Source of the DNA: an uncultured delta proteobacterium
GTDB taxonomy: Bacteria > Desulfobacterota > Desulfomonilia > UBA1062
Assembly (NCBI GenBank): GCA_963798485.1
Contig: CAWCTR010000014.1
Span: forward strand, 416,001-480,000
Direction: 5' to 3'
DNA length: 64,000 nucleotides
Shown: positions 25,365 through 49,302 of the stretch, piece after piece
How the letters are laid out: each line of letters starts with the position of its first letter
Numbering within the stretch: the first letter of the stretch is position 1
Made by a program: the position numbers and the translations under genes
Notes under the pieces: model-generated
Database searches by the model: none
What the model was told of the DNA's origin: nothing
What the model saw: only the letters and a program-made list of their open reading frames with translations

Positions 25365-26054
25365 TCAGTTCTGCTTTTCAAATTTTAGCTTGTCTACCTT
25401 GTCGGTATACTCCTGCACGAATTCTTCAAGCTCCACTTTTTTAACCTGCGTGAGAGGCTCCTTTGCCGCCAGGGCGCTCACCACACCTTTATTCTTGTAT
25501 TTGATAAGCAACTCCTTGGATATCGCAGTTAGCTCAGTGTTCGCTTTCACACACCGCTCAAACTCATTCTGGTTCCGAGTAAGCTTCTTCTCCAGGTCTT
25601 TTTTAGCATCGCTCAGCCGTGCCTGCTCCTTCTGCGAATCCGAGGCTAATTGTGCATGTGTTTTCTTCAGGTCATCGAGATCTTTCTTCAGCTTGTCCCG
25701 CTCCAAAGTGAGCTCATTAAGTGCGCTTGTCTGCTTTTCCTTATAGGCATTGAATTCGGATTTCAGCACCCCTTCCTCTTTCACCGCCTTGTCCAGGTCG
25801 GACTGGGAAGAACGCTGCTTGCCTTCGACAGAGGACTTCATGCGCAGATATTCCTCGGACTGGTGTTTCTGGTCGGCATATTTCTTGTGGAGCTGCTCTT
25901 CTTTCATGGTGAGAGTTGCAATCATGTCCTTCTGCTCATTGTTTACTTTGACGAGGTAGAGGCAACCCCACGCAAGGGTAATAAGTACAATTACGCCGAT
26001 GATCTGCACCACCAAGACCATGTTCATTTTCTTCTGAGCCATATAGTCCTTCAT
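25365..26054 (-). CDS. Membrane-anchored coiled-coil protein, last gene of the TPS-TonB operon
   Basis: N-terminal TM, about 150 aa of coiled coil, C-terminal KEPLTQVKKVELEEFVQEY motif. Confidence 0.7.
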   Translation of the reverse strand: MKDYMAQKKMNMVLVVQIIGVIVLITLAWGCLYLVKVNNEQKDMIATLTMKEEQLHKKYADQKHQSEEYLRMKSSVEGKQRSSQSDLDKAVKEEGVLKSEFNAYKEKQTSALNELTLERDKLKKDLDDLKKTHAQLASDSQKEQARLSDAKKDLEKKLTRNQNEFERCVKANTELTAISKELLIKYKNKGVVSALAAKEPLTQVKKVELEEFVQEYTDKVDKLKFEKQN

Positions 26055-26128
26055 TCCTCCGATACTGATTCGTTCTCTAAGTACGTTTTCTTCAGCAAAT
26101 TGCTCTCCTGAACGGACATCCGTCCTTC

Positions 26129-26521
26129 TTAAGGTTTTTTGTATTGCTGGATGATCTCCCAGGTGCCCAGGACATTTTCCATTGCTGCCTTTGTCGATTC
26201 CGCATTATTGTGCGATGCAGCCTGATTGAGCTCTTCGGCCTGTACAGCGAGCCTGTTCACCATGCGTCTGAAGTACGAGTCAAGGGCCTTGCGCGAAAGG
26301 ATGCCGCTTAAGTTCACCATCTCTCGGGCGTTCATGGCGAGGATCCTGTAGGTATAACGCTCTTCGTTCTGGTATTTCAGCGTATCAATATAGCTGCTCA
26401 TTTCCTTGATCCCGCCCTGCAATTCCTTGTTCGAATAGGCGCCATCCAGGTCTTTCATGACAGCGCAGGAAATGCAGAGGAAAGAGATCATGACCGGCAA
26501 AAAGATGAAAAGCTTTTTCAT
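26129..26521 (-). CDS. Small helical lipoprotein
   Basis: MKKLFIFLPVMISFLCISC lipobox and an amphipathic helical body. Confidence 0.6.
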   Translation of the reverse strand: MKKLFIFLPVMISFLCISCAVMKDLDGAYSNKELQGGIKEMSSYIDTLKYQNEERYTYRILAMNAREMVNLSGILSRKALDSYFRRMVNRLAVQAEELNQAASHNNAESTKAAMENVLGTWEIIQQYKKP

Positions 26522-26542
26522 AGTATTCTCCAAGCCTCAAGG

Positions 26543-28318
26543 TTAAAATTTTACGTTCATGTCAACCTGCAGGGTGTCGATGGCGATCTTCGGACCGTCG
26601 ATCTCATCGGCACTGTACCACTGGATCGACCCCCAGACGTTCCTGGTCAGACCCAGGTCGTATTTGAGGATATACCCTTGCGCGTTCGTGCCACCCCCAT
26701 GGAAATTCGAGTCGGTGAATGCATCGAGCACACAATCTTTCCCGACATATTTCCTGGCGGCCGAGCACCTCCACTGTCCGAAGTCGGACACTTCCTTGTA
26801 GCCCACCCCAAAGATGACCTGGTATCCTTTGGTGTCCTTATTCAAACCAGGACCCGTGCGACTGATCACTTCACCCGTGTTAAATCCTATGTTCTTTACA
26901 TAATCACCGGTGAGGGTCAGATGCACGGGGTTGAAGATTACGACATCGATCATGCCGGTGTAATCAAGTTCATGATAATCTGCAGCGAGCGCCAGCTTAT
27001 AGCTCGACGAGGGGTCGATATCGAAGAGTGTGTTCCCCATCTGCTGGAACTGAGGAGCGGTCCAGTCGGTAAGCCCTGGGTATTGTGGGTTATTGGGTTT
27101 GCCCACCATGTTCGTGTAATAGTAATATGCACCACTGAGTTTGACGCTGATGATTTCAGGTGCATTCAGCTTTATACCTGTCTGCATCCCGTAGAGCCAC
27201 TTGTCATGGGAAGACAGCTCCACTTCCTGGATAGGGAATGCGCCAACGGTCAGAAAAGTGCGCAGCGGCCTGCCGAGCTGGGTGTCGAACTGGAGGGCCA
27301 CCCCGTCGAAATTGAGGTTGTCGTCCCACACAAGGTCCGTATAAAACCAGGGGTTCGGCATCCTGCCCGCCCAGAGACTCAGTTCGGGCATAGGCCTGTA
27401 TCTCATCCATGCCTGATTGAGCACCACACTCTTATTGTTCTGGTAATCGCCGAATGTCACATTGGCGGAGACCGGGGTGGTCGTGTTTCCCGTGCTGATG
27501 GTTACTCCCGCATCCACCTGGTCGGCAACCTGGATCAGGGTGTTGAGCCTCACCCGCAACCGCATGCGATCCCTGTCCTCCGTCGTGTTCATGAGCTGTG
27601 TCGGATTGCTGGGGCTTAGGACCTGGTCGTCATTGTCGGAGGCGAAGTAATCACCCTGGTAGCGGACCCTTATATCGCCTGTAAGCCTGATCTTGCTTGC
27701 CCACTCGGGCATTTCGGGCGTAAGCCAGTTCCCGAGACGGGCCTCTTTGAGGATATCCGCCTTGAGTTCATCCTTGACGGCCGATTGCACACTCCCCTTG
27801 ATCTGTCCCGCTACCTGCCTGGATATTTCATCGATGTACTTATCACGATCCGATGCAGGGAGCTGTGCGGCAGGGTTCCGCTTTGATGCCTCAAGGTATC
27901 GCTCCGCCTCCTCATCGCTGATGAGCCCGCGGTCTTTGAGGCCTTTGATCATGGTCTCGAAATCCAGTTGTGTGTCCTGCTGGGGCAAATCCGGGGTTAC
28001 CGCGGTCTGCTGTAAGGTGGCAGCCTGCTCTGCCGGGCCGGCCTGAGGCGCGGCCTCTGGGGTAATATTTTCAGCCGGGGCTGGCTCTGCGGCCTGTGGC
28101 GGGATTGAAGACGCTTCAGACTTCTCCGCCGGGGTCTGTTCAGTTGCATTATCCAGGACTGCCTGCTTATCCTCCGCAGTGGTCCCCTGCATCACAGGGG
28201 CTGCGGGGGCAGGCTCGTCTGCATGAGCCTGCCCCACAACACAGACAAACGGGATAGAGATGAGAAGGGCGATTACATACGGATAAACTCTCTTCCTGTG
28301 AATCAGTAGGTGTATCAT
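26543..28318 (-). CDS. Putative porin with a long periplasmic N-terminal extension
   Basis: Signal peptide, Pro/Ala/Gln linker, then WASKIRLTGDIRVRY, DRDRMRLRVRL, DLVWDDNLNFDG, DSNFHGGGTN; ends QVDMNVKF (beta-signal). Confidence 0.85.
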   Translation of the reverse strand: MIHLLIHRKRVYPYVIALLISIPFVCVVGQAHADEPAPAAPVMQGTTAEDKQAVLDNATEQTPAEKSEASSIPPQAAEPAPAENITPEAAPQAGPAEQAATLQQTAVTPDLPQQDTQLDFETMIKGLKDRGLISDEEAERYLEASKRNPAAQLPASDRDKYIDEISRQVAGQIKGSVQSAVKDELKADILKEARLGNWLTPEMPEWASKIRLTGDIRVRYQGDYFASDNDDQVLSPSNPTQLMNTTEDRDRMRLRVRLNTLIQVADQVDAGVTISTGNTTTPVSANVTFGDYQNNKSVVLNQAWMRYRPMPELSLWAGRMPNPWFYTDLVWDDNLNFDGVALQFDTQLGRPLRTFLTVGAFPIQEVELSSHDKWLYGMQTGIKLNAPEIISVKLSGAYYYYTNMVGKPNNPQYPGLTDWTAPQFQQMGNTLFDIDPSSSYKLALAADYHELDYTGMIDVVIFNPVHLTLTGDYVKNIGFNTGEVISRTGPGLNKDTKGYQVIFGVGYKEVSDFGQWRCSAARKYVGKDCVLDAFTDSNFHGGGTNAQGYILKYDLGLTRNVWGSIQWYSADEIDGPKIAIDTLQVDMNVKF

Positions 28319-28437
28319 CTAATGTCCTTTCATTTTTTTGTTAACATTCTCTGTGGAGCAAATTGTATGAACCCGCGATCGTCATTACTAAACAAGCAGC
28401 GGTCTCTGATCTCAATGGTCATAGCCTACTCAATATC

Positions 28438-28477
28438 ACCCCTCTACCCTGACCCTCTCCCGCAAGGGGAGAGGGGA
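28438..28477. repeat. CCCTCTCCC..GGGAGAGGG palindromic REP-like unit
   Basis: cccctctaccctgaccctctcccgcaaggggagagggg hairpin between the tonB-like and porin genes. Confidence 0.65.
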
Positions 28478-28510: not shown

Positions 28511-29197
28511 TTACGCCCTTGAGGAGATCTCTACCCTCAGGACCTTTGGCATGCCTTCAGGAGGCGGCTCGTTGAACCTCTTGATGAGACTCAGGGCGCG
28601 GGAAACGGCACTGTCCATCTGCTCCGATCCGGAAGATTTGTAGATCCGGTACTTCACGAGGTTTCCGTTGTCATCGAGCTGAAGCACCACAATGGTTTCG
28701 AGGTTGCCCGAGGGTATGTTACCCCTGGCGAAGACCTTGTGGATCTCATCCTGGATGCCCCTGTTGTACCAGGCATACTTCTGCATGAGGCTCTGGGGTC
28801 CTCCTCCATTTGGGTCGCTCCCCACCAGGGCCCTTCCACCTTTCCTGCCCACAAGCCCGAATGCGTCGCCCCCAGCGCCTCCCTCGGCATCGAGGCCCAG
28901 CTGATCGCCCGGCGGCGGCTCGTTCTTATCGGATTTGCTGTTCGGGACATCCTGCTGCTGGACCATCTGGTTCTCATGGGGCTTCTCCTGTTTGACCTCC
29001 TGCTCGGGCGGCTTCTCCAGCTTGGTCGGCGGGGGCGGTTTCAAAAGGGTGACCATGTGAATCGCCTTATGCCTCACCTTGTCCTCGGTCAGAACCATCT
29101 TCACCATGGTCGCGCCAAGCCCCACCAGTACGAGGATCACGATACCCGAGATCACCTTGACCCCGGTGGACAGCTTGTCTTCAGCATGCCTTACCAT
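28511..29197 (-). CDS. tonB: TonB/TolA-type energy transducer
   Basis: N-terminal TM, Pro-rich KPPPPTKLEKPP linker, TonB-C fold (LDDNG...SSGSEQMDSAV...EPPP). Confidence 0.8.
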   Translation of the reverse strand: MVRHAEDKLSTGVKVISGIVILVLVGLGATMVKMVLTEDKVRHKAIHMVTLLKPPPPTKLEKPPEQEVKQEKPHENQMVQQQDVPNSKSDKNEPPPGDQLGLDAEGGAGGDAFGLVGRKGGRALVGSDPNGGGPQSLMQKYAWYNRGIQDEIHKVFARGNIPSGNLETIVVLQLDDNGNLVKYRIYKSSGSEQMDSAVSRALSLIKRFNEPPPEGMPKVLRVEISSRA

Positions 29198-29231: not shown

Positions 29232-29639
29232 TCATTTCACCACCTTCTGCGTTACAAGCCCCAGCTGCGTGATATCCAGCCGTTGTAAGAGATCGAGCAC
29301 GTCGATGACCTGCTGGTAGGCGACCTGTGAATCGCCCTTGACGATGACCGGCAGATCCGGGTTGGTGGCCTTGTACTGGACGAGCGTGTTCTCGAGGTCC
29401 TTCAGGGTTACCGGGTAGGCATCGAGGTAGATGGTCCCGTCAGCGGCAATAGTGATGGCCCTGGTGCTCGGCTTGTTCAGCGTCGGGGCCGTGCTCGCCT
29501 TGGGCAGGTTCACCTGGATGCCCTGTACCGCCGCTGTGATGCATACGATGAAAACGACCAGGAGGTTCCACGCCAGATCAAGCATGGGCGTAATGTTGAT
29601 TTCATCGTACGCCTTCTGATCGAACATGCCCCGTTTCAT
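29232..29639 (-). CDS. exbD: ExbD/TolR family protein
   Basis: EINITPMLD (essential Asp), VNLPKA and VIVKGD...Y..VI.VLD. Confidence 0.92.
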   Translation of the reverse strand: MKRGMFDQKAYDEINITPMLDLAWNLLVVFIVCITAAVQGIQVNLPKASTAPTLNKPSTRAITIAADGTIYLDAYPVTLKDLENTLVQYKATNPDLPVIVKGDSQVAYQQVIDVLDLLQRLDITQLGLVTQKVVK

Positions 29640-31465
29640 CAGGCAATCCTCCTCTCTTCGAGAGTGTCATACCGTTGGGCATCCTCGGTGTAGTTGGCTT
29701 CCACATTGATGGTGAACTCATCCACAAAGAGGTAGACATCCGCCATGATATCCTTGATCTTGGTGGTCAGGTAGTTGTATGCGAACAGCGCCGGTATGGC
29801 CAGGATCAGGCCCGTCAGGGTGCAAGCGAGCGCCGACGCGATGCCCGGCGCAATGGCCATAATGTTGGCTTCTCCCACCTGGGCCATGGCCGCAAAGGTG
29901 TTCATGACGCCCCAGACCGTACCCAGCAGCCCCAGGAACGGCCCGCCGGTAATCCCGATGGTCAGGAGAATAAGACCGCTGTTCAGCTTCTGGCCCTCCC
30001 GCAGCGCACCTTTTTCCAGCTCGTTCCTGAAGATGCTTGTTACCTTCGGCGTTATAATATGTTTTCCGTTGATGCTCCTCATGCGGTTGTTAAGGACGTG
30101 ACAGCCCTGCTTGAAGATGCGGTAAACGGGCGAACGCGGATATTCGCCGCAGGTTTTCTCGAAGCCGTAGTAATCGTCCCGCTCCTCGATCAGAGGCATG
30201 AATTCATCGTTCGCCTTGGTGATGTTCCGGATGGTGTTCAACTTGTCGATAAAGAGCACGATGCAGAAGCCCAGGATAATGAGGGTGATGGCAATGATTG
30301 ACCACCCGGAGATTGTGGTGTTTTTGAACACGATCACCAGATAGCCGAACACTTCGAGCATGCCGCCGCCTTTTGGGGCCTCGGCGGCCCCGTAGGAGAG
30401 CAGGGTCGGCTTGGGAGACTGGCTCGAATACTGTGCCTGGACCCAGGGCTTGGAACGTGCGGTATTGGAGATGGTGAGCTCGTCCAGGTCGCCTGCAAAG
30501 CCGTGACCGCCTTTGCCATCGTTGCCGATGACGATCTCGCCTGCGAGATTGGGCAGTGTGGGAGACAGGTCTATACCGTATATGTCCTTGCCGTCGATGT
30601 AGAGCGTAAGCTTGCCCTGGTGCTGGGCGCTCATCACCACATGGTGCCACTGGCCGAGCGTGATCTCGCTGTTGGCCACCGGGGTCATGAGGGTGTCTTC
30701 CCTGCCCGACTTGAGACGGCAGTAGAGCCTGGTCTTGTCTATGCCGATGGTGATCGCCTTGTCCCCTTCTTCCCGGTAGAGGAGATATGCGTCAGCCTGC
30801 GCCGTGTTGGCCCTGATCCAGGAGGAATAGGTAAACCCGCCGGAGATGTCCAGCGACGGGTTCGACTGGATGACGAGCTTGTCCGCTCCGCCTCCAAGCG
30901 TGACCCCTTTGCCCACTATGGCAGGCAGCCCCAATGACCCTGAAAACGCGGAGGCATTGTTGCCGTAGCCCGTGGAGTCCTTGGGCATGCCTTCGGTTTC
31001 GGCAAAGTGGAACACCGCCACATAGTTCTTGTCATAGGTGCCCTTCGTGTCATCGGCCCTGGGCGCCTTCTTGTTGTCGTAATACATCCAGATGAAGTCG
31101 GCCTTGGATGCGGCTGCAACCTTTGGGACGCGCACCCAGATAAGCGCCATCTCGTCGGTGATGTCCAAGAGCTCGATGTGGTGCTTGAGCATTGCCTTGT
31201 CATCCGATGATACGAACCGTATGTCCGAGCCGTCTTCCTTGATGCGCGTGAAGTCGATATTCCCCGTATGGAGCCTGACCAGGACCGGTATTTCGTCCGC
31301 CCCTGCATGGATGTCCGCCCCGGAAGTTGTGGTGTCGATGGTGATCTTCTCCCTGCCCGACCACTCTTCATTCCACCATGCGCGCGCCTCGCCGGACCAT
31401 AGGCAGATCAGCGAGCATGCCAGGAGAACCCCCAGCAACCGATTTCTTATCACATGTGAGTCCAT
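29639..31465 (-). CDS. exbB: DUF2341-LamG-MotA/TolQ/ExbB fusion proton channel
   Basis: Signal peptide, AWWNEEW...PVLVRL...DGSDIRF (DUF2341), WHHVV...LYIDG...FAGDLDEL (LamG), and GPFLGLLGTVWGVMNTF...IAPGIASAL (ExbB). Start ATG 31465 after SD GGAGG. Confidence 0.9.
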   Translation of the reverse strand: MDSHVIRNRLLGVLLACSLICLWSGEARAWWNEEWSGREKITIDTTTSGADIHAGADEIPVLVRLHTGNIDFTRIKEDGSDIRFVSSDDKAMLKHHIELLDITDEMALIWVRVPKVAAASKADFIWMYYDNKKAPRADDTKGTYDKNYVAVFHFAETEGMPKDSTGYGNNASAFSGSLGLPAIVGKGVTLGGGADKLVIQSNPSLDISGGFTYSSWIRANTAQADAYLLYREEGDKAITIGIDKTRLYCRLKSGREDTLMTPVANSEITLGQWHHVVMSAQHQGKLTLYIDGKDIYGIDLSPTLPNLAGEIVIGNDGKGGHGFAGDLDELTISNTARSKPWVQAQYSSQSPKPTLLSYGAAEAPKGGGMLEVFGYLVIVFKNTTISGWSIIAITLIILGFCIVLFIDKLNTIRNITKANDEFMPLIEERDDYYGFEKTCGEYPRSPVYRIFKQGCHVLNNRMRSINGKHIITPKVTSIFRNELEKGALREGQKLNSGLILLTIGITGGPFLGLLGTVWGVMNTFAAMAQVGEANIMAIAPGIASALACTLTGLILAIPALFAYNYLTTKIKDIMADVYLFVDEFTINVEANYTEDAQRYDTLEERRIA

Positions 31466-31481
31466 TAACCCTCCGCCTTTC

Positions 31482-34400
31482 TTACTTGTCCTTATCCTGA
31501 TTCTTGGCCTTTTTCTTCGCCTGGTCATCATTACCCTGTCCGCTGTTATCCTGCCCTTGTTCATCATCGCCGAACCCGATAACCATGACCTTCACCCACT
31601 TAGGCACATAGCTTTCTTCTGCAGCAGCGCTGCTCTTGGCTGCTGACGAAGATATGCCCGACATCTCTTCAGAGAGCTGCGATGACTCGTTCAGGCTGCT
31701 TGTCCCTGACAGTGCGGTGAGGGACCCGGCGTTCGTGTTCGTCAGAGGCACCCCTACGGAGACGCCCGACACCTGGATGTTCTGGGTGTTGCGGACTTGC
31801 TGTGCGCCGATGTACAGGTTCTCTGCCGCAATGCCCGCTTCACCCGCGTCAATGATGCCCGCAGGTGCGAAAATATAGGCGTCGCCGGGCTCCGGGGACG
31901 GAGTCTGATCGTTGATCGAGTAGGTGACCGTGCGGATCCCGCTTCCGGTTGCAGCCGGCAGGTACTCTTGAGTCAGCTGTCCTGAATCTTCATCCCACGT
32001 CCAATCAGAGCCACCCCTTCCGACCGCGGTCTTGGAGCCCCTGCCGGCATTGATGTCACCCTTGTCGCTCCATATCAGGATGTCACCTCCGTAGAGAGTC
32101 ATGACCCTTGACTGCAGGACATCCACGTCCTTGCTCGAAAAGATATCGATATTGCCTCCCTTCCAGGTTTTTATGCCGGTACTTTCGTCAGAGGTCAGGT
32201 CGCTGCGGCCCACGTCCATGGTGCCTGTCGAGAGGATACTGATGTTCGAGTTGGTGCCCTTCGCCGTGATCTGCGAGCTGATCATCCGGATATCACCCTT
32301 AGCCAGGGTGGTATCAGTCCCCTGGGTAGCCGTAGATCCGGTGTCCACCGTGCCGATAAAGGGCTCTATGATGTTCTTATCCGTTTCGGCGACGATATCG
32401 AGCGCTCCTTTGGGATCGTCCTTGAGCTTGGTGCTGTAATCAATGCCTGCCTGCTTGATCTGGCTGAAGAACTGGTCGACGCCTGCCGGGTCCAGTGGGT
32501 GCGTCGCCGGATCGAGACCAGAGGCCACGATGAGATTGCACCCCTGGTTTCCGAGTTGAGAGGAATAGAGTTCAAAATAGTTTCCCTCTGATACAATGCC
32601 TTGCGTGGCCCCAAGGTCAATGGAGTTTCCGGCCTGGACGATTAACGTGCCCGGCCCGCCGTACAAGAACCCGGTCCCATAACCGCTCGCGTCCACCGTG
32701 CTCATGACGATATCGTGTCCTGCGCTTATGACGGAGACATCGTTCTTATGGAGGTTCTGGCCCTGTATGTAGGTGTCGCGGATATCATTGCCCGCCTCTA
32801 TCTGAGCCATCTTGGGCAGGTAGAGCCTCAGGTCGTGGATATCATTGCCTGCATCGATGGTGATCGAGGTATGATCGGCCTCGTGGATCAGGTCTCTGCT
32901 TGCGGATCTGGAGATGTCTCCTGCGATGACCTGGGCTTTTGTATTCTCGGTACTGATTGTTGTATATCTGGGCTTTCCCGTTCCTTCATCAATACTTGTC
33001 TCTATGGATAAACTGATAGGCATTGCAGTGCCGTATACCTGCTGGGGGTCGAAGTCTGACATCTCTATCTTAGCCTCGCAATACGTCAAACCTGTACCTG
33101 ATCCTACAGTGTACGCGCCGCTGATGTCACGGCCTGCAGCCATACTGAGGTTCCCTGTCAGGGAGGGCGCCAGATATAAATCCTGCAGGATATCGATATC
33201 CCGCCCGGCCTCGACCTCCAGGGTCGGCGGAAGCATTTCCTGGGCATTGGTCGTTGACGTCGAATCGCCATTGTAATAGGGCCCTGCTTTCCCGGTTATT
33301 GTGACATCACCCTGAATGGATGTGATGCGCACCTTGGCGTCTTCGGTGTAACTGAATACATCATTGAGGCCTCCGGAAGTCGGCAGCCTGGGGTCGGCAA
33401 GGTTCGGGTTCACGATAGACCCCAGCATGATGTCGCCCTGGGCGGTAAGACGCACGTCCGTATCGAAGGCCTCCACGGCCATGTTCTGATTGTTCGTGCT
33501 TGCCATTTTCTGCTGGTCCGTGCCGATGTTGCCCATGGCGTTCAGCTCGCATACCCCGTCCTTGACCAGAAAACGGCCGTTGATGTCATTGTCTGATACG
33601 ATCTTCAGATCGCTCTCGCCGTTCAGGCCGAAGGTCCCTGCCTGGGCAAAGAAGTCACCACCGGTTCGGATAGAAAGGTCCCCTCCTCCCATGGTGGCAA
33701 TACCCCTAGTACTTTGAAGCAAGCCGTTCGTGTCTGCATAACTTGCCACCCAGGTGGGAGTGGTCATATTGCCGTCCGCATCAACAATAATATTTCCCTG
33801 GTCATCAACCTCGTAGGCTGAAAGACCCGTGTCCCATGCATTCGGGTTGATGCCGCCCTTTACATCACCTCCGACCTTCAGGTTGATGCCGCCGCCGTTG
33901 CCGAACCTCCAGTAAGATGAATACGCATAATGCGGGGATGGCTCCATATATCCTGTCGTACGTATTGCCCCGTCCGTTCCCATGACCACATCCCCATTCA
34001 CCGTAAGATCGATTGCCCCGGCTGCGCTCTGGATGGCCCCGCCCTTCTGAATCTGGGTGCTTCCCGTCAGTAACAGGTCCCTTCCCACCTCGCCTTTGAT
34101 ATCGCCGTCAAAGGTTGCGAGGTTGTACTTCATCGAGCCATTGATCATATATGAAGCAGTAGTTCCTGCGTAAGCCTGCATGATCGTGTCGCGGCCCGAT
34201 GCGAAACGAAGCGGTGCGTTCTCGGTATAGACAAGCTTTGAGCCGATGTTGAGGTCGCCTGTATCGGGCGCGGATATGACGGCCATGGTATCGGCGCTGG
34301 CAAGGTCGGCACCGGCCGCCAGGGTAATACCCCACGAATCCATTTTAGTGTCTGCGGTAAGAGAGGTGAACACCGTGGGGTGGTCTGTAATATTCTGGTT

Positions 34401-41910: not shown

Positions 41911-43638
41911 CTAGAACTGCCCTTTGACCAGGAAATGCAGTATCCGGTTGTTCTTGTCTGTCTGGTCCGTCTTCCTCAAGGCAAAGGCATAATCGGTCTC
42001 AAACTGGAAATATCTGGTCAGGCTCCCCCGCAGGCCTAGGCCGGTCCCGTAGATGCCCGCGCTTCTGTCCTGCTGGGGCAGCGGATCGATGGTGGTGAGC
42101 AGGGCAGCATCGCAAAAGAGGTACGGCGTCAGGTATGTAGTGCCCTGATCCGATCCTGAGGAAATATATGAAGTCAGCTTCGAGTATCCGGGTATCTTCA
42201 GCATCTTCATCAGATCCGGGGCTCGCAGCTCTATGGTGCCGTGCAGGGCGTTGTCGCCTGCCTCCTCACTTTCCTTGTATCCCCGGACACTCTCCATGCC
42301 GCCTGCCGTATACTGCTCATTGCTGATGAGCGGCTGGCCGCTCATCTGGCCGTCGACCTTGAGGAACAGGCTCGCATCTTTCGGCAGAGCCAGGTCGCGT
42401 TCCACGCCGAGCTTCGTGATGAAGTAATCGGCCCGCGCCATGTAGCGCTTGTCTTCGAACTGGCCCTCGCGGGTGCTGAACCCCCTGAAGCAGGTGCTCA
42501 TGCCGGCCTGGAACCTGGTTGCCCCTAATGAATCGGGCAGGTTCGAATTGTACTGGACGTTAAACGGCAGATAAGTGACCGGCGTCTTGATACCGCTCGG
42601 AGAGTCCTTCGTGCCCTGGGTCTCTCTCATGTGCTTGTAGTCAACGCCAAATGATATGCTGTGCGAGTAGATCTTGTAGAAAGGGAGCGGCACTGCATAC
42701 TGGAGCCCGTAGATGTCGCCTTTGCCGTTCACCTGGAAGCCTTCTCCGAATGCGGTCTGGCTGTCGGAGATCACCCCGTATACAGCCAGTATGTTGTCTT
42801 CGTTCCAGGGTGCCGGCAGCACATAGGAGGCGGCAAAGGCCTTCACCTCGTCTGTTTCCTGTGGTGACATCTGGTACTGGAGGCTGATGCTGTGGCTGCT
42901 CTGCCAGAGATTGTCATAGTGAATGACGCCGTTCAATCTCAGGTCGCTCGTGTCGTGCGTGGAACGGTTGTTCAGCTCGATGCTGCCGTGCAGGGGAAAA
43001 TAGTCCGTGGCACGCAACTCGACGTCCGTTGTCCCGAGCTCCTTGCCGGGCATGAGGATGGGTTCTATCTTGAGGTCGGAGGCGCTGTTCGCCTTGTTCA
43101 TTTCCTTCTGGACTTCAGGCACATAAAGGAGCTCGCCCCTCCTGAACGCCGGGAGCATTTCCAGGATCTTTTCCTTGGTATGGTAACGGTTCCCGGTAAC
43201 CCTGACATCTCCGATCTTGCTCTCGATGACCTCCAATGTCACTACACCCTCCTGCACATCCTGTGGGGGTATGTTCACAAGGACCGTGGGATACCCATCG
43301 TTGTGGTAGAGTTTTTCAAGGTATTTCCTCGCCTCCTCGACATCTTTAGAGGTCTTGTTCTGTCCTGTGTAGAAGTTGAGGCCTTCGATAATCCTGTCAT
43401 AGTCCAGCAGCGTGTTGCCCTTTACGATATAACCCTTGATCTCAAAGGCCGTCTCTTCCTCCTGTGCCGTATACCCGTCCCGGAACATGACAAGCAGAGT
43501 GAATACCACCACCACCAGGATCCACATGGTCTCCATGAACAACCCTGATTCTTCATCCTGTCTCTTATTGCCGTTACCAGCTGGATCCATGTCGGCATAA
43601 CCATACCTCTGATGCTTCTGAGATTTTATCTCCTTCAT
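41911..43638 (-). CDS. ShlB/FhaC/HecB (TpsB, Omp85) transporter
   Basis: POTRA domain (FEIKGYIVKGNTLL...YHNDGY...IPPQ...V.L.VIE), SVRGY loop-6 motif, C-terminal Phe. The start codon is uncertain. Confidence 0.92.
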   Translation of the reverse strand: MKEIKSQKHQRYGYADMDPAGNGNKRQDEESGLFMETMWILVVVVFTLLVMFRDGYTAQEEETAFEIKGYIVKGNTLLDYDRIIEGLNFYTGQNKTSKDVEEARKYLEKLYHNDGYPTVLVNIPPQDVQEGVVTLEVIESKIGDVRVTGNRYHTKEKILEMLPAFRRGELLYVPEVQKEMNKANSASDLKIEPILMPGKELGTTDVELRATDYFPLHGSIELNNRSTHDTSDLRLNGVIHYDNLWQSSHSISLQYQMSPQETDEVKAFAASYVLPAPWNEDNILAVYGVISDSQTAFGEGFQVNGKGDIYGLQYAVPLPFYKIYSHSISFGVDYKHMRETQGTKDSPSGIKTPVTYLPFNVQYNSNLPDSLGATRFQAGMSTCFRGFSTREGQFEDKRYMARADYFITKLGVERDLALPKDASLFLKVDGQMSGQPLISNEQYTAGGMESVRGYKESEEAGDNALHGTIELRAPDLMKMLKIPGYSKLTSYISSGSDQGTTYLTPYLFCDAALLTTIDPLPQQDRSAGIYGTGLGLRGSLTRYFQFETDYAFALRKTDQTDKNNRILHFLVKGQF

Positions 43639-43694: not shown

Positions 43695-44906
43695 TCACTG
43701 CCCCGACGTGCAACCCTGCTGTTCCTGGGGCAATGTCAAAGAGGCTTTCGAGGTTTCTCTCTTTCCTGTCATGCCGTGTGCGATGCAGTGTATCTCGCTG
43801 GCGAGTTTTGCGGCGTTGCTGAACCCGCTGAGCTTTTTCACTACCGTCCCGTCAGGACTTATGAGCACCGTCAAAGGAAACCCCTCCTGCTGGTACATTG
43901 TCTTGTATTCTTTGTTCAGGTCCGAATCGATCTTCACCCACACGAAGTTTTCGGCAATGGCCTTGATCCTCGGGTCTACCAGGGTTTCATCAAAGTATTT
44001 TTTGCTCCACTGGCACCATGATGCATAGAGCACGAGCAGGACAGATTTGTGCTCTTCTTTGCCCCGGGAAAGGCCGGCCTTGTAGTCATCGCCCCAGGCT
44101 ATCTTCATGGCTTCCATGGCTGCCTTGGGTACAAAGGAAACAGCTTCAACCGTAAGGTTGATGTTCTTCCCGGCCAGGGGATTGTTCAGGTCCACAGTGA
44201 ATTTCTTGCCGTCACTCGAGGTGATGACCCCCTTTTTCCCATCTGCATCGAAATCGGCGCCGATCTGCGGGGTGAGTGTGACATAGATCATATCGCCTTT
44301 CACCCTGACGACAGTCTTCCCGAAGGGGCTTTGCGCTGTAAAGCCGTCTTTTGGCTGGTTCACGAGCACTGCCTCCTTCTCGGTCACCTTCTTCACCTTT
44401 GCCGGAAAGTACGGGTTTGCATTTACCTTGGCCCCTGCAACCGGGAGCTTGTTGAACCGGAATACATATTCACCCGGTTTCATGGTGAAGGCCTTCTTCA
44501 TGGTCTTTATGCAGTCGAACTGTTTGAAAAGATTCTTGTCTATTGACCCGTACGCATTCTGTGCCGGCACTGTTACGGTCCGTCTTTCACCGACGCGCAT
44601 CCCTGGGAGTATATCCTTGAGTCCGGGTACCGGGCCGTCTTCCCCGGCTATCATATCGGAAGGTATGGCACAGTCGGGCTCATCGTATCCCCTAGCCCTG
44701 ACCGTATCTGCCCCTGAGGCGGTAAGAGGTTCTGTCGTGTAGATTGTCTCACCGCTCTCGGTCCTTGCGGTTATATTGATAGTGACGAGGTCACCCTTTT
44801 GTATCTCAGTGCCCGTTGCCGATGCAGGCAGCCATCCGATGATGGACGGCAAAACCCAGATCATGGTTGTTGTTATTATGATAGGAAAAAGGCGTCCTGT
44901 TTTCAT
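43695..44906 (-). CDS. Exported FKBP/SlyD-type PPIase fused to a thioredoxin-like (CxxS) domain
   Basis: GMRVGERRTVTVPAQNAYG and VDLNNPLAGKNI; C-terminal YASWCQWS and GFPLT (cis-Pro). Confidence 0.8.
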   Translation of the reverse strand: MKTGRLFPIIITTTMIWVLPSIIGWLPASATGTEIQKGDLVTINITARTESGETIYTTEPLTASGADTVRARGYDEPDCAIPSDMIAGEDGPVPGLKDILPGMRVGERRTVTVPAQNAYGSIDKNLFKQFDCIKTMKKAFTMKPGEYVFRFNKLPVAGAKVNANPYFPAKVKKVTEKEAVLVNQPKDGFTAQSPFGKTVVRVKGDMIYVTLTPQIGADFDADGKKGVITSSDGKKFTVDLNNPLAGKNINLTVEAVSFVPKAAMEAMKIAWGDDYKAGLSRGKEEHKSVLLVLYASWCQWSKKYFDETLVDPRIKAIAENFVWVKIDSDLNKEYKTMYQQEGFPLTVLISPDGTVVKKLSGFSNAAKLASEIHCIAHGMTGKRETSKASLTLPQEQQGCTSGQ

Positions 44907-45766
44907 GGTTGCTTGTCCTTCTGGGTTTTATCGCCGGCACCTGTGCCCCGGGGCAGTATGGAGTCGATTTGCACATCGCACATGAGCTCTTCACCGCCGA
45001 AGGGATTCCCGTAGTCGATAGTGAATGTCTTTTCTGTCACTTTTATGATCCGGCCCACCTGGGACGCGGATCGTACAAGGTGACCCTCCTGTGCATTGGT
45101 CACGATGTCATAATGGTCGGGGTAATCTCTGATCACCCCCCTGCCGAACGGCTGGTCAACGATACGGCCGTCTTCCACATCGATATGGATGAGAGCCTCC
45201 TTGTCCTTTATATCTTTTACGGTACCCACAAAACCCTGATAGGAAAATGCCTGATCGCCTATGGCTGGGACATATCCGATCTTTTCTTTCAGGGCCTTCA
45301 GGGCCACCTTCTGTTCCTTTTCCCTTCGTACCACCCGGCCGAGGGTTGTATAGCGGTCCCCCTCCTTCAGATCGGAGGGGACATCGGACCTGAGTACGAT
45401 GGTGTTGTTTTCACCCACCTTCATGCCCACAATCGCCCGGGCCACTTGGGCCGCAACTTCCCACTCGAACATCTTGAGTTTGCCGAACCTCGGGTAGTTG
45501 TCCGGACCGCCCGCCACCAGATCTTCAGGGCCATATTTCTTGAAGGGAAGGAAGATGGCCGCTTGAGAAGCCTTGTCCCCGGCGATCTCTTCACGGGTGG
45601 TGAGCACAACTTCGCCGTTCATCAGGCGGCAGGTGTAGTTCACCATGGCAGTGTCTCCCTGCTTTACCCGGACAGGGCCGAATGATGAACAACCGCTGAG
45701 TGTCGATGCAATGATGATGGTTATCAGTGCGAAAGAAATAACATGTTCCTGTTTGTGCATCATCAA
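44903..45766 (-). CDS. FKBP/SlyD-type PPIase lipoprotein
   Basis: Lipobox LSGC; VKQGDTAMVNYT, GMKVGE and IDYGNPFGGEEL. Confidence 0.75.
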   Translation of the reverse strand: MMMHKQEHVISFALITIIIASTLSGCSSFGPVRVKQGDTAMVNYTCRLMNGEVVLTTREEIAGDKASQAAIFLPFKKYGPEDLVAGGPDNYPRFGKLKMFEWEVAAQVARAIVGMKVGENNTIVLRSDVPSDLKEGDRYTTLGRVVRREKEQKVALKALKEKIGYVPAIGDQAFSYQGFVGTVKDIKDKEALIHIDVEDGRIVDQPFGRGVIRDYPDHYDIVTNAQEGHLVRSASQVGRIIKVTEKTFTIDYGNPFGGEELMCDVQIDSILPRGTGAGDKTQKDKQP

Positions 45767-45867: not shown

Positions 45868-47097
45868 CTACTGGCGGACCGGGTATGTTAAATCGGTGGT
45901 CTTCGTCACGCTCATCTCGCTGCTGGTTGCCCACCAGGTGTTCTCGGAGGCAGGCAGGTTGGCTGGATTGGCTGCGAAGTTGACCAGGTCATTGACCAGA
46001 CCGTTCATTGTTGTACCCAGGTTGTTCGGCCAGTACAGCTCCTGTGCTGACCAGAAGTCATACTGTCCCTCTTTGATATGGGTCCTGTCGCCGGTGACAC
46101 CCATATAGGGCAGCCGCGTGGCGCCGGTAAGGACCTGATCGGAGTCGGCATAACCAATAGCGCCTGACACTGTGGAGACGCAGGTCATCATCTGGCCGGT
46201 GCCGTCATTGAAATATGTCACAGGGGACAATCCGGCAAGATAGAGCGGGTCGGTGGGAAGGACCTCGGTGGTCACCAGGGAGTAATCGCCCCTCATGACG
46301 GCCGCATCAAGTGTGGCAACCGTGCCCGAGCCTGCATGCCTCATGCACACGACGATCGGCGTCGATGCCGTAGTGGTGTCCAGCTGGTTCCAGTTGGTAA
46401 CCTGTCCGGAGAAAATCTGAGTGGCCATGAGCCTGCTCATGTTGGTAATGTTGGCCAATTTGGTGTCGCTGCTGTTCTTGAAGAAGGAAAAGGGAACGAC
46501 CAGGGGTGATGCGTTGTAGTACGTTGCCGGCATGCTCAGGCCCGAGACGATACGATCGACCTGGGAACCGCCTGCAGGGCCGTTGGCCAGCCCGTGGCTC
46601 TCCTGGTTGAATGTCTCTGCCTTCACATCGGAAGCAGCTACGTTGATGGGCACGCACAGGTTGGCGGTTACGGTGTGCGCAGACCAGCTGGCGGTTGCCT
46701 GATTTGCCATCTGGCGCTGGGCGTTGTTTGTACAACCTGCAGTTGCGAAATCGTTCAGACCCTGAACGGCATCGACGCCGTCATAGGATGCCTTGGAAGA
46801 ATAACGCAAAACGAGCGTGTCATGGGTGCCGCTGATGCCGCTGCCCGATACACCGCCGAAGGCCGTGTTGCCGGCGCATACCGCGATGCCGTGCTTGTTG
46901 TCGGAAGAATGGGCCGTGTAGATATCGCCCGATGCGCAGCCCTTGGAGGCGAGGAACGCGGCGTCGGATGCGGTCCAGAAATTGTATTCTGCCGAGGCGC
47001 CGTACATGTTGATTTCGTAGCTTGCAGCATTTGCCATGCCGCCGATCGCCAGCATTGACACACCAAGGATCGCTGATTTCATATATTTATTAAACAT
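45868..47097 (-). CDS. Secreted PstS/DING-like phosphate-binding-fold protein
   Basis: Signal peptide ending ANA; YGASA, AASDV, IFSGQVTNW, RHAGSGT and GAIGYAD; 6 Cys; SD AAGGAG before ATG 47097. Confidence 0.75.
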   Translation of the reverse strand: MFNKYMKSAILGVSMLAIGGMANAASYEINMYGASAEYNFWTASDAAFLASKGCASGDIYTAHSSDNKHGIAVCAGNTAFGGVSGSGISGTHDTLVLRYSSKASYDGVDAVQGLNDFATAGCTNNAQRQMANQATASWSAHTVTANLCVPINVAASDVKAETFNQESHGLANGPAGGSQVDRIVSGLSMPATYYNASPLVVPFSFFKNSSDTKLANITNMSRLMATQIFSGQVTNWNQLDTTTASTPIVVCMRHAGSGTVATLDAAVMRGDYSLVTTEVLPTDPLYLAGLSPVTYFNDGTGQMMTCVSTVSGAIGYADSDQVLTGATRLPYMGVTGDRTHIKEGQYDFWSAQELYWPNNLGTTMNGLVNDLVNFAANPANLPASENTWWATSSEMSVTKTTDLTYPVRQ

Positions 47098-47145
47098 AGT
47101 GTATTCTCCTTTTTTTAGTATATTCATTCGGTTCAGTATGATTGG

Positions 47146-47919
47146 TTACGCGGCCGTCTCTGCGCCCTTCTTTTTCAGACCCACAAGACCAAGCAGCCCG
47201 GACCCGAAGAGCAGTATGCTCGCCGGGATCGGTGTGGCGGCAGTCGATTCGGCGACCGTGCTGCCGTTTGCATTGAGGGTGAGTATACCGCTGTAGGGGG
47301 TGCCGTTTGCGCCGGGAGCTGCGGAGACCAGGTTGAAGTGGTAGAGGTACATAGTTACGGAACCACCATTATCGAGAGCAGCAAGGCTGGCTTCGCCGAG
47401 TGCACTGGCTGCCGTATTAAGTCCTCCATAGTAGCCTGGGGCGGTTCCATTCGAATCCATCTTCTTTACATATGAATTCACATTGCTTGGACTGGCATCC
47501 ACGATCTGATTTGTGGTGCCGCCAAGTTGGGTGGCGTAGTATGTGTTGACAGTAGAGCCGTAGGCAGTACTAAAGTTAGTCCTTGCGTTAGGATTGATTA
47601 CCGGGGTTGTAGTCGCCGTGGTTGCGAAGTACTCCTGGTAGGTTGAACCGCTGTAGGCAAAGAACCCGACTTTCAGATTCGACCAGCTGGATGCCTGGAG
47701 TGCGCTGAGGTTGATGCTGTCCGCACCGGCAAGGGTCAACGAGCTTGCGATGGTGTCAAGGTTCAGGGTGGCGAGATTGCCGAGATCGATGGCGCGTTCA
47801 GCCGTTGTTCCGTTGTACACGACCTCAATGAGATCGTTGTTCGAAAAATAGGCAAAAGCCTGTGAAGAAAGTGCTGTCATGAGCACAACTGCTAGTATGG
47901 TTATGAAACTGGATTTCAT
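47146..47919 (-). CDS. PEP-CTERM/VPLPA-CTERM surface protein
   Basis: Signal peptide ending AFA; Ser/Thr/Asn-rich body; C-terminal TPIPASILLFGSGLLGLVGLKKK; strong SD AGGAGG. Confidence 0.9.
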   Translation of the reverse strand: MKSSFITILAVVLMTALSSQAFAYFSNNDLIEVVYNGTTAERAIDLGNLATLNLDTIASSLTLAGADSINLSALQASSWSNLKVGFFAYSGSTYQEYFATTATTTPVINPNARTNFSTAYGSTVNTYYATQLGGTTNQIVDASPSNVNSYVKKMDSNGTAPGYYGGLNTAASALGEASLAALDNGGSVTMYLYHFNLVSAAPGANGTPYSGILTLNANGSTVAESTAATPIPASILLFGSGLLGLVGLKKKGAETAA

Positions 47920-48259
47920 GTTTTTTACCTCCTCTGTTTTTTAGTGATGCCTGGTGTTTCTTTAAGTATGTTGCCGCCGAGGGATTCTTTATTTTATTTT
48001 GACTTGCCTCTCCTTGCCCTGATCACCCCCTTTCTTTCGGCTTCCGGCCGTACGCACTGTGTGTGCGGACAGAGTTAGGCCGTTCGTTTAAGAGGGCTTC
48101 CTGTTCCTTACTGTACGTATATTAAGGAATGATGGCGCTCGGTAAATTCAGAGCCGAAGAACTTCGATTCATTCCCCTTAGCTCATTCCTCATTGTGATT
48201 CTAAAAACTGATCAACGTAAGTCAGCAAAGTACCCTGTATGTATTTAATTGTGAGACGG

Positions 48260-48313
48260 GTTGTACCACGGGTATGTGAACGGAGTATGAATGAACAATG
48301 AATTTTTTGTTAA
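48260..48313 (-). promoter_or_regulatory. Pho-box array promoter of the PEP-CTERM/TPS/TonB operon
   Basis: Minus-strand TTAAC/TTCAT/TTCAT/TTCAC at plus positions 48309, 48298, 48287 and 48276 (11-bp period), then 10 nt, then TACAAC. Confidence 0.75.
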
Positions 48314-48447
48314 TATTGAAAATAGTTTGTGGTCATGTATGTCATTGATTTTATATTTGTTTATTAACGTTGTCACGTCAGGTCCAGACCTTCGAGGCAT
48401 GAGTGAAATGTGATACTCGGCTGAATCGTTTCACTCGGCGCATTTTG

Positions 48448-49302
48448 CTAGGTGCGCTTTGACTGGCCCGCAAGGGGGACACTCACCGTGAGAATCTCGC
48501 CGCTCCTCTCCACCTCGAAGGAGAGAGCAGAAGCGCCCTTCAGGCTCCTCGTTGCCAGCGCAGCATCACCCATGGAATTTACCGGAATCCCGTTGATGGA
48601 CCTGATAATGTCCCCCGGTCTCATGCCGAACTGGTAAAGCCTCGAGCCGACCCCCACACCAGACACCCTGTAACCCTGGGATCGTGTCTGTTCCTGGGCC
48701 TGGGCAATGGCAGGGGCAATGGCGGACATACCCAGGGCAGACTGTGCTGAAACTTTAGCCCCCTGATTGGTTTTCAAGGCGCCTCCAGAAGCAATTTGGG
48801 CACCCCCCTGATTGGTATCTCTGAAATCCATGACAAGCATCTGGTTCCTGCCCCCTGTGCTTACTATGATCTGATCGCGGAATATGGCCTGTATGACCCC
48901 GCCTTTCAGCAGGTCACCGATCTTGTAGATGCGCTGCTCTTTGTTCTCCTCGATAATTGCACGGGCTAGATCCTTCGGACCGGCTATGGTACCTTTAAGA
49001 ACCAGCCCCATCGACAAAAACGTGCCCATGGGCATGGACTGGTCCGTGGTCGCAGATCCTGTCCTGGCAACTTTGAACAAGTCCCTCTCGAAGATGACTT
49101 CATAGGCTGATTTTGTCCTGATGGGCTTGTTCTGCATTTCTTTGGTGATATTAAGTGCCTTCTGAGGAACAGGAGGTTTATAGAGGATATGGCCTGCTAT
49201 TGATGTCACAAGACCGGCTGCAACCCATGTAAACATACCAATAAAAAACACTGCAGCTATCCATTTATATTTATATAGTGTCTTGTTATAGTGTGACTTC
49301 AT
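48448..49302 (-). CDS. gspC: Type II secretion GspC-like protein with PDZ domain
   Basis: TM, HR domain (LVLKGTIAG...AIIE...YKIGD...IFRDQIIV) and PDZ (GMRPGDIIRSING...VERSG). Confidence 0.75.
   Translation of the reverse strand: MKSHYNKTLYKYKWIAAVFFIGMFTWVAAGLVTSIAGHILYKPPVPQKALNITKEMQNKPIRTKSAYEVIFERDLFKVARTGSATTDQSMPMGTFLSMGLVLKGTIAGPKDLARAIIEENKEQRIYKIGDLLKGGVIQAIFRDQIIVSTGGRNQMLVMDFRDTNQGGAQIASGGALKTNQGAKVSAQSALGMSAIAPAIAQAQEQTRSQGYRVSGVGVGSRLYQFGMRPGDIIRSINGIPVNSMGDAALATRSLKGASALSFEVERSGEILTVSVPLAGQSKRT

Follow-up and report, generated by a model that had tools for sequence, protein, structure and literature searches.

Why should a giant two-partner secretion (TPS) protein be encoded side by side with an ExbB-ExbD-TonB motor of its own, an outer-membrane porin and a relative of the phosphate-binding protein PstS? 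This question is raised by a gene cluster in a stretch of 64,000 nucleotides (hereafter the window) from an uncultured delta proteobacterium of the phylum Desulfobacterota (GenBank assembly GCA_963798485.1); the source genome is denoted G000 here, and its contig C14 (CAWCTR010000014.1) holds the window at 416001-480000. The comparable motor of Pseudomonas aeruginosa has had no known job since 2009, and the window cluster, in which a giant secreted surface filament comes with a small proton-driven motor of its own, appears to be a relative of the P. aeruginosa cluster. We tentatively propose, with a confidence that stays slightly short of even, that the cluster represents a motor-coupled two-partner secretion system of the PdtA/PdtB type, in a form that belongs to the Pho regulon. 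As judged from the sequence, the identity of the cluster and its Pho control are well supported; the step in which TonB would contact the tail of TpsA and the step of phosphate uptake are presented as hypotheses.

The cluster consists of 13 open reading frames (ORFs), all on the (-) strand of the window between 25365 and 49302 at the positions given in a preliminary description of this DNA, with an intergene spacing of -4 to 192 nt (Table 1). Domains were assigned to the 13 proteins by profile searches with Pfam and NCBIfam, which confirmed the gene list of that description almost entirely and added a thioredoxin domain in the second FKBP protein. The end of tpsB and the start of tpsA are separated by 13 nt. 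As listed, the ORF of ExbB has an overlap of 86 nt with tpsA; since alignments with its orthologues begin only around residue 27-35, M35 at position 31465 is probably the true start. Gaps of 192 nt before the porin gene and 101 nt before FKBP1 are present inside the cluster, and we found no convincing internal (-) strand terminator in it; however, the 192-nt gap, which separates tonB from the porin gene, has a strong hairpin. This 9-bp GC-rich palindrome at 28453-28475 may serve in attenuation or as a site of processing. A TonB-dependent receptor is absent from the locus, as had been stated previously: the window has no Plug domain, the two Plug matches of the genome being at C4:257252 and C14:199449, and none of the 13 proteins matched the TolB or Pal families of Pfam and NCBIfam. 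At residues ~116-200, in the N-terminal extension of Porin_5, a Pro/Ala/Glu-rich spacer is followed by a helical motif, present once or twice (L-x-x-L-L-x-x-K-G-hydrophobic-I-x-x-E-E-A), which may resemble SHOCT.

On the basis of gene content and of the content and order of domains, not of alignment, the cluster looks like a counterpart of pdtA-pdtB-exbB2-exbD2-tonB4-PA0696 of P. aeruginosa. The available part of PMC7035377 describes pdtA, phdA, pdtB, exbB2, exbD2, tonB4, PA0696 (a putative porin), PA0697, PA0698 and PA0699 (PpiC) as one block controlled by sigma-VreI and PhoB, and according to that of PMC9769906, PdtA, PA0696 and PA0698 belong to the proteins with the strongest enrichment at low phosphate. 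The parallel with a phosphate-starvation cluster of P. aeruginosa, which the preliminary description had drawn, is in print as far as the available text of these two papers and of Llamas et al. (2009; PMC2729926) goes. The exbB2-exbD2-tonB4 system is called putative in the same parts of PMC7035377 and PMC2729926, and has been uncharacterised since its first description. PA0690-PA0699 and the window cluster share a giant TpsA with its TpsB, followed by exbB/exbD/tonB homologues, a porin-like protein, small proteins and a prolyl isomerase; they also share control by phosphate starvation and PhoB, which for the window is predicted from the Pho-box sequence. They differ in that the order is tpsB-tpsA in the window but tpsA-tpsB in P. 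aeruginosa, and in that the chaperones are FKBP-FKBP-thioredoxin in the window but PpiC in P. aeruginosa; furthermore, the window encodes two proteins in addition, one PIP-CTERM and one dedicated PstS-like, and lacks both an adjacent Hxc-like type II system, having only one gspC paralogue, and the VreA/VreI/VreR layer. The genome has 12 Sigma70_r2 matches, none of which is on contig C14. No P. aeruginosa protein was among the best 120 matches of the protein searches with ExbB or TpsA.

Other known systems resemble the cluster in parts. The FhaB/FhaC and CdiA/CdiB systems, which are the source of the idea that a C-terminal part stays in the periplasm, have the same TPS domain, POTRA-ShlB transporter and long beta-helix, but they have neither a dedicated ExbB-ExbD-TonB nor Porin_5 nor a DUF3739 with a strand-motif tail. 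HxuA/HxuB/HxuC of Haemophilus influenzae is a TPS system genetically coupled to TonB-dependent uptake according to the available part of PMC5422565, but its TonB partner HxuC is a plug-containing receptor, whereas the window lacks a Plug domain. With the ExbB-ExbD-TonB and TolQ-TolR-TolA systems the cluster shares the MotA_ExbB, ExbD and TonB_2 domains, and TolQ is the best NCBIfam match of the ExbB channel part (118 bits, below the cut-off); unlike those systems, the window has a periplasmic DUF2341-LamG extension of ~370 aa on ExbB and has no TolB, Pal or TonB-dependent receptor. This extension is noted as uncharacterised in the available text of a 2025 motor survey (PMC12505986).

We examined the inheritance of a core composed of DUF3739 TpsA, TpsB, DUF2341-LamG-ExbB, ExbD, TonB, Porin_5 and the coiled-coil protein, using 401 genomes as a sample of the phylum. 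Eight of them (G000, G045, G134, G165, G173, G255, G294 and G392) matched the fused ExbB over its full length, and DUF3739 was present in the identical eight, on the same contigs and adjoining the ExbB gene; an ExbB search at E up to 1e-20 gave matches in 175 of the 401 genomes, and the others among the matches listed covered only the ExbB/TolQ part. Neither DUF3739 nor the fused ExbB was found in the two same-genus and four same-family genomes searched. The two same-genus genomes, G209 and G115, keep phoB-phoR-pit-pstS-pstC at 70-80% nucleotide identity and the similarity ends just upstream of phoB; therefore, the cluster and gspC are accessory DNA in the genus. Among the other carriers, contigs were of sufficient length in G045, G392, G294 and G255, which represent four other families, and tblastn searches located PstS-like, both FKBPs, FhaC, TpsA, ExbB, ExbD, TonB and Porin_5 in each of these; the coiled-coil protein was found in three of the four, without a match of at least 45 bits in G255, and the gene order or strand arrangement differs in three of the four. 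In G392, TpsA is split (L053 2438-11476 and the next frame) with DUF3739 in a separate frame of 222 aa, possibly through a frameshift or an assembly error.

The core was also found in an Anaeromyxobacter metagenome-assembled genome (MAG) and a Chthoniobacterales MAG, and, with E up to 1e-30, the fused ExbB architecture is represented by no fewer than 505 protein clusters, whose source names include Burkholderia, Paraburkholderia, Gallionella, Sulfuricella and Ancylobacter. A metagenome survey was conducted with hidden Markov models built from the window and its orthologues, covering the best 80 of 570 loci with a 10-kb flank, and the counts below have as denominators the loci with enough flank: ExbD was present in 68 of 68, TonB in 50 of 52, Porin_5 in 41 of 42, the coiled-coil protein in 28 of 33, TpsA or TpsB in 39 of 47 (missing in L073, L074, L082, L084, L096, L120, L122 and L132), and the full core in 22 of 25. 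As far as can be judged from such occurrences, the core is a widespread module and a functional unit; the view of these genes as a unit, expressed in the preliminary description, stood up to the neighbourhood check, the 11-gene set recurring also in rearranged form. The PstS-like, PIP-CTERM and FKBP-Trx genes, none of which was seen in the Anaeromyxobacter or Chthoniobacterales loci, are on the same grounds lineage-specific add-ons. As to the co-occurrence with PEP-CTERM and PstS-like genes, which had been suggested as a check, the gene immediately upstream of the PstS-like one codes for the PIP-CTERM protein in five of five genomes, and neither was seen with the core in those two loci.

The evidence for Pho control comes from a repeat pattern, TTMAY-N6-TTMAY-N6-TTMAY, which was taken from the site of the cluster itself, so that the pst and phoB sites serve as an independent test. 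The window has 5 exact matches against 0.01 expected, and 12 matches with one mismatch allowed against 0.26 expected; all of them are intergenic, being located 5' of the cluster, gspC, phoB, pstS, pstC and a HAD-family hydrolase gene. The previously proposed Pho-box promoter before the cluster is confirmed in that the same box is found at phoB, pstS and pstC, and a scan with the one-mismatch pattern found no second box inside the cluster. Across the whole genome of 4.3 Mb the exact pattern occurs 17 times, distributed over 11 sites, which include those of pstC, gspC, ppk, a calcineurin-like metallophosphoesterase gene, a GT4 glycosyltransferase gene (Pfam) and three CTERM genes, one of them in the cluster. 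A two-repeat site 5' of phoB is conserved with its flank in same-genus G209, in which the triple repeat with one mismatch was not found 5' of phoB or the HAD gene. That the triple TTMAY repeat is the Pho box of this organism is a well-supported prediction. The genes phoB, phoR, PhoU_div, PHO4/Pit and pstS-pstC are on the (+) strand, divergent from the cluster as had been described; the canonical pstS is a separate gene at 53965-54798, and an ORF of 219 aa at 53910-54569 was rejected as its shadow. The linkage to phoBR, also claimed previously, holds in this genome and is rare elsewhere: a pho/pst linkage was seen only in G045 within the phylum, and PhoB/PhoR-like genes in 1 of the 80 metagenome loci.

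Fifteen of the 17 exact triple repeats are located within 82 kb (G000 C14:413347-495252), where the genes behind boxes are pstC, gspC, the cluster, ppk (C14:480558-482714), the calcineurin-like phosphoesterase gene (C14:495397-497199), the GT4 glycosyltransferase gene (C14:492659-495085) and a CTERM gene (C14:483253-484020); judging from these genes, the stretch looks like a phosphate-starvation island. The HAD-family hydrolase gene (488 aa, 23066-24532, (-) strand) is directly 3' of the cluster and has a one-mismatch Pho box at 24811-24848, 279 nt upstream; its product may be a Pho-regulated phosphatase.

The PstS-like protein scores 52.7 bits against TIGR02136, the cut-off of which is 206.6, and its family comprises 468 representative clusters when E up to 0.001 is allowed and 192 when the limit is 1e-30. 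In an alignment of 60 homologues, the columns of S45, S114, D167, R263, S267 and G268 are invariant and that of T269 is nearly so, and at five cysteine positions there is no or almost no variation; the R-x-x-G-S-G-T loop can be aligned with that of PstS1 (entry 4exl), and we take the invariant columns to be the classical phosphate-ligand residues. The profile of the family matches the window's own PstS over the C-terminal lobe with a probability of 94.6%. An AlphaFold2 (AF2) model of the protein has a predicted local distance difference test score (pLDDT) of 93.3, and in the list of its fold matches in the PDB the best 29 are phosphate-binding proteins without exception (E as low as 1.5e-13). 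In common with PstS/DING proteins it has the loop and the fold (against PstS1, entries 4exl and 4lat, the TM-score normalised to the target is 0.80-0.83), but it is ~150 residues longer, is not beside pstCAB and forms a family of its own. Sequence and model together identify it as a dedicated, divergent PstS fold with a predicted intact anion-binding loop. The gene is present in 6 of the 401 genomes, all of which carry the cluster; the other two carriers are represented only by contigs of 4-8 kb. Two homologues, P0335 and P0402, represent family members of 828-888 aa that have an N-terminal array of beta-propeller-like repeats fused to the domain, and such a fusion suggests an extracellular use of the PstS-like domain.

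The other part of interest is the C-terminal end of TpsA. In 29 aligned homologues, the last 330 residues are composed of DUF3739 beta-helix coils, a Ser/Ala-rich linker and a motif at the extreme C-terminus, and many homologues end directly after G-F-G-E. Of 120 further TpsA homologues, 99 have a match to the motif pattern in their last 70 residues, and the misses that were looked at appeared by eye to carry variants of the motif. In the AF2 model of the C-terminal piece, a helix hairpin and the beta-helix have pLDDT above 90 and residues 245-331, including the motif, are unstructured; a fold search with this model gave no PDB match at E up to 0.001, with generic beta-helices only. We docked TonB 95-228 with the last 67 residues of TpsA as one pair, using a 27-row alignment for each, and obtained a score of 0.47 (0.47, 0.45 and 0.47 in separate runs), the best of three controls being 0.00; the runs agree in at least 74% of contacts, and the pLDDT of the partners is at least 46. 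Among reference pairs, 58 of 80 solved complexes passed the mark, as did 2 of 110 mismatched pairs, and at a score up to 0.60 it was passed by only 7 of those 80 complexes and by both mismatches; this calibration holds only roughly here, custom alignments having been supplied. The docking gives weak support to the possibility that TonB docks on the strand motif of the tail, and modestly raises the chance of such a contact. With a long flexible tether carrying a short strand, the end that would be the last to leave the cell has the appearance expected of a TonB box. If the analogy is extended, the motif would be a TonB box on a secreted protein, through which the motor would pull a beta-helix of ~3000 residues from the periplasm, making it a proton-powered retractable or force-gated filament that is used, in this lineage, with the dedicated PstS and the porin for phosphorus foraging; we consider this extended idea unlikely in its entirety. 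Were it true, this would be the first TonB system having a type V secretion substrate as its client instead of a plug-containing receptor.

The Pho-regulon TPS system that we propose would work as follows. At low phosphate, PhoB would turn the cluster on, and the periplasmic FKBP-Trx proteins would hold the 3471-aa TpsA chain in an export-competent state; TpsB would then thread TpsA to the surface, where it would fold as a long beta-helix. The disordered C-terminal tail of ~85 residues, with the strand motif, would remain periplasmic, and TonB would grip it as it would a TonB box, so that the proton-driven ExbB-ExbD motor could act on the filament from inside by pulling, gating or releasing it. 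Phosphate or a phosphorylated ligand gathered at the surface would pass to the Pst transporter by a route formed by Porin_5 and the PstS-like protein. Our confidence, as we infer it from the evidence described above, falls from the induction by PhoB, through the export of TpsA with the help of isomerase and thioredoxin, the action of the motor on the TPS system and the TonB-tail contact, to the inward route by Porin_5 and the PstS-like protein; and a role in "phosphate capture or display", as the preliminary description worded it, is likewise something that we infer.

Several observations weigh against this proposal. The PstS-like gene was not found in the Anaeromyxobacter or Chthoniobacterales genomes, and it was found in none of the 80 metagenome loci, though there the 10-kb flank cannot see past the 10-kb tpsA. 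Unless the contact was probable beforehand, a docking pass at 0.47 will be false in more cases than it is true, and the model may be reproducing a likeness to solved TonB/TonB-box complexes; the LamG domain, ExbD, Porin_5 and the POTRA domains of TpsB are alternative candidate partners for the tail. Transposon mutants of tpsA, tpsB, PA0695 and PA0696 of P. aeruginosa had, with VreI overexpressed, wild-type virulence in zebrafish according to the available part of PMC2729926, and therefore no phenotype links the motor to TpsA. As for regulation, the Pho-box pattern was not found 5' of the clusters in G045, G392, G255, G294 and L003-L005; among the relatives scanned, only the pstS promoter of G045 carries it, and the exact pattern is absent from the 80 metagenome loci. 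The leader of the PIP-CTERM/PstS-like pair has instead a cyclic di-GMP (c-di-GMP)-I riboswitch in G294 (60.6 bits) and G255 (50.5 bits; gathering score 35) and a match below the threshold in G392 (31.3 bits); therefore, phosphate is one regulatory input among several. Positions 47850-49700 of the window gave no match to c-di-GMP-I or any other Rfam family at E up to 1.

Four rival explanations were weighed, and two of them can be combined with the Pho-regulon TPS reading. The motor might open Porin_5 for phosphate, polyphosphate or organophosphate in the manner of a plugless TonB-dependent transporter, with TpsA only gathering or processing the substrate. Porin_5 comes after TonB in 41 of 42 related loci and has a long conserved periplasmic N-terminal extension, and the idea fits both the PstS-like periplasmic binding protein in the same cluster and the enrichment of PA0696 at low phosphate next to OprO and OprP in P. 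aeruginosa (PMC9769906, available part); but no TonB-box-like strand is evident by eye in the N-terminus of Porin_5, and the one-to-one co-occurrence of the fused ExbB with DUF3739 TpsA is left unexplained, so that we regard the idea as a minor, though real, contender. The co-occurrence itself, observed in eight of eight genomes, would be natural if the motor served export or assembly, DUF2341-LamG on the ExbB pentamer handling unfolded TpsA together with FKBP or PpiC while the proton-motive force feeds or ratchets TpsA into TpsB, or inserts Porin_5 or TpsB. A prolyl isomerase recurs in the module even though the families differ (FKBP in the window; PpiC in L005, in 7 metagenome loci and as PA0699), and FKBP1 and FKBP2-Trx are fused in two genomes; nevertheless, TpsA proteins of similar size, such as FhaB and CdiA, are secreted without any such motor, and we rate an export motor a shade lower than a TonB-gated porin.

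A different possibility is that the product is an adhesin or biofilm filament to which phosphate is connected by regulation only, phosphate starvation or c-di-GMP setting the timing and the PstS-like protein having been recruited for another ligand. The riboswitches before the PIP-CTERM/PstS-like pair in G294 and G255, and the sub-threshold one in G392, point in this direction, as do the absence of pho or pst genes near most related loci, the exosortase in the window, PEP-CTERM proteins being linked with exopolysaccharide loci, and the fusion of PstS-like homologues to beta-propeller-like repeats, which are typical of surface proteins. The invariant anion-binding residues of the PstS-like family, its confinement to cluster-bearing genomes in the 401-genome sample, and the sharing of one box by three CTERM genes, ppk, a phosphoesterase gene and pst genes in this genome argue for more than a regulatory link to phosphate, and this explanation is to our mind about as doubtful as that of the TonB-gated porin. 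It would finally be conceivable that TPS, Ton, porin and PstS-like genes belong to unrelated operons lying side by side, for which two gaps could be cited, one of 192 nt, containing a hairpin, ahead of the porin gene and one of 101 nt ahead of FKBP1. Such chance neighbourhood is extremely improbable and is already contradicted by the co-occurrence counts, namely the strict co-occurrence of DUF3739, the fused ExbB and PstS-like genes and the maintenance of the gene set despite rearrangement in four further families, in two further phyla and in 80 metagenome loci.

As a gene association the module is neither rare nor new: Llamas et al. (2009; PMC2729926, available part) reported that TPS, ExbBD and PA0696 homologues travel together in several proteobacteria. 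In the literature searched, none of the papers listed proposes, by title and the start of the abstract, a mechanism for a TPS-linked ExbB/ExbD/TonB motor, and there was no relevant paper on the function of DUF3739 and no paper on that of DUF2341. As far as searched, the following points appear to be new: DUF3739 and DUF2341-LamG-ExbB are linked one to one, the module extends beyond proteobacteria, TpsA has a tail motif that is conserved, and a Desulfobacterota variant has a dedicated PstS, a PIP-CTERM protein, FKBP-FKBP-Trx and predicted direct control by a Pho box. The module is found in Desulfobacterota, Myxococcota, Verrucomicrobiota and under many proteobacterial names, and the dedicated phosphate-binding protein of the Desulfobacterota version argues for phosphorus acquisition as at least one of its uses. 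A vague association can thus be turned into a concrete question, i.e., whether TonB binds to the TpsA tail and what becomes of the filament when the motor stops; even if the TonB-tail idea is wrong, there is still a clean comparative definition of a module without known mechanism.

Table 1. Genes, protein regions and regulatory elements of the cluster. Positions refer to the window unless another locus or contig is given; bit scores are from profile searches.
Feature	Position	Strand	Assignment and remarks
gspC paralogue	48448-49302	(-)	T2SSC 49.5 bits, PDZ
PIP-CTERM protein, 257 aa	47146-47919	(-)	No Pfam match; signal peptide, novel domain of ~200 aa, PEP-CTERM-like sorting tail
PstS-like protein, 419 aa	45868-47127	(-)	PBP_like_2 36.9 bits; signal peptide; 6 Cys
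FKBP1	44903-45766	(-)	FKBP_C 18.2 bits, under cut-off 21.1; L-S-G-C lipobox by eye
FKBP2-Trx	43695-44906	(-)	FKBP_C 35.3 bits, Thioredoxin_7 42.4 bits; WCxWS motif
TpsB/FhaC-type transporter	41911-43638	(-)	ShlB 62.8 bits, POTRA_2 58.4 bits
TpsA, 3471 aa	31482-41897	(-)	TPS (PF05860) 95.8 bits, residues 62-294; long beta-helix
TpsA C-terminal region			DUF3739 112.2 bits, residues 3270-3384; then disordered tail
TpsA C-terminal strand motif, residues 3432-3443	31569-31604	(-)	Hydrophobic-x-V-x-V-hydrophobic-G-F-G, then acidic residues
ExbB fusion	29639-31567	(-)	DUF2341 64 bits, Laminin_G_3 76.6 bits, MotA_ExbB 96.6 bits; DUF2341 and LamG N-terminal, periplasmic
ExbD/TolR	29232-29639	(-)	98.5 bits
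TonB-family protein	28511-29197	(-)	Transmembrane segment, Pro-rich spacer, conserved LGLDA...GG motif, C-terminal TonB_2 48.9 bits
Porin_5 outer-membrane barrel	26543-28318	(-)	421.5 bits; long periplasmic N-terminal extension
Exported protein, 134 aa	26129-26533	(-)	No family match; homologue only in closest relative, L003
Inner-membrane-anchored coiled-coil protein, 229 aa	25365-26054	(-)	No family match
Pho box of cluster	48276-48313	(-)	Four TTMAY repeats, 11-bp period; 357 nt 5' of first ATG
Pho box of gspC	49399-49425	(-)	TTMAY repeat pattern
Leader hairpin	48093-48236	(-)	GGGNACYTYGCUGRC ... CAGRAAGCCC; at or near transcript 5' end; large distal insertion in window copy
Leader hairpin, further copy	G000 C14:~484139	(-)	
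Leader hairpin, further copy	G000 C7:~393099	(-)	
Leader hairpin, further copies	L049 2581 and 2783		
Leader hairpin, further copy	L052 12783		
Leader hairpin, further copy	L055 7338		
Leader hairpin, further copy	L056 15900	(-)	
c-di-GMP-I aptamer	L056 15626-15707	(-)	
c-di-GMP-I aptamer	L055 7558-7637	(+)	
c-di-GMP-I aptamer	L052 13020-13092	(+)	

The PIP-CTERM protein scores 16.5 bits against VPLPA-CTERM (cut-off 25.35), and an alignment of 19 homologues revealed a signal peptide and a tail made of the PIP motif, a hydrophobic helix and a basic end, with (T/V)-P-I-P conserved; its mature domain has 26 homologous clusters, all of which are unnamed. Like proteins of the PEP-CTERM/exosortase system it has a C-terminal Pro-x-Pro, hydrophobic helix and basic tail, and exosortase genes are present, but the motif is PIP instead of PEP and no curated model reaches its cut-off. 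The genome has two PF09721 (exosortase) matches, one of which is in the window at 10848-11597 (+). The exosortase (EpsH) gene, with a frame of 516 aa, is near an AAA_31/CbiA-type gene at 19622-20584 and ~36 kb from the PIP-CTERM gene; its neighbourhood is likely an exopolysaccharide/PEP-CTERM locus. In G045 and G255 a small ORF of ~55-60 aa, '...VK(I/V)NFSQG...RIEKFEEILK', is located 5' of the PIP-CTERM leader (L049 ~2330-2510 (+) and L055 ~7130-7300 (+), respectively); it is not found in the window and may resemble YezD/DUF2292.

FKBP1 and FKBP2 cross-match in tblastn, and in G045 and G255 FKBP1 and FKBP2-Trx form one fused ORF (L049 5476-7401 (+), 641 aa, and L055 4749-6710 (-), 653 aa, respectively). 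The thioredoxin motif WCxWS is present in three of four FKBP2-Trx orthologues. A PpiC isomerase stands in place of the FKBPs in L005 and the 7 metagenome loci mentioned above, as does PA0699 in P. aeruginosa.

The leader hairpin is a motif common to the window and the riboswitch-bearing leaders of the relatives. It precedes PEP-CTERM-like genes, and the genome has three copies, each 26-40 nt 3' of a Pho box; the strict pattern gave one other match, which is probably due to chance, in 1.53 Mb of DNA. RNAalifold applied to 8 instances gave 15 pairs, 4 of them with compensatory changes, and no Rfam family matches the hairpin, which is possibly an undescribed cis-regulatory RNA. A reading of the leader motif as a sigma-54 promoter was rejected by eye, the spacing from GG to GC being ~4 nt too short for the sigma-54 consensus.

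The gspC gene, which the preliminary description had included in the machine, has to be separated from it: a gspC match of at least 45 bits was near none of the five related clusters, and the gene is a paralogue of the housekeeping gspC. The latter is at C14:69355-69774 near a secretin, the secretins of the genome being at C14:64547 and C22:62780; the window gspC stands alone, far from either secretin, and differs from type II secretion loci in having no secretin or other Gsp genes alongside. From its position and its own box, it is best regarded as a separate Pho-regulon gene outside the conserved set, and its product is perhaps an alternative specificity subunit with which the housekeeping type II system is equipped under phosphate starvation.

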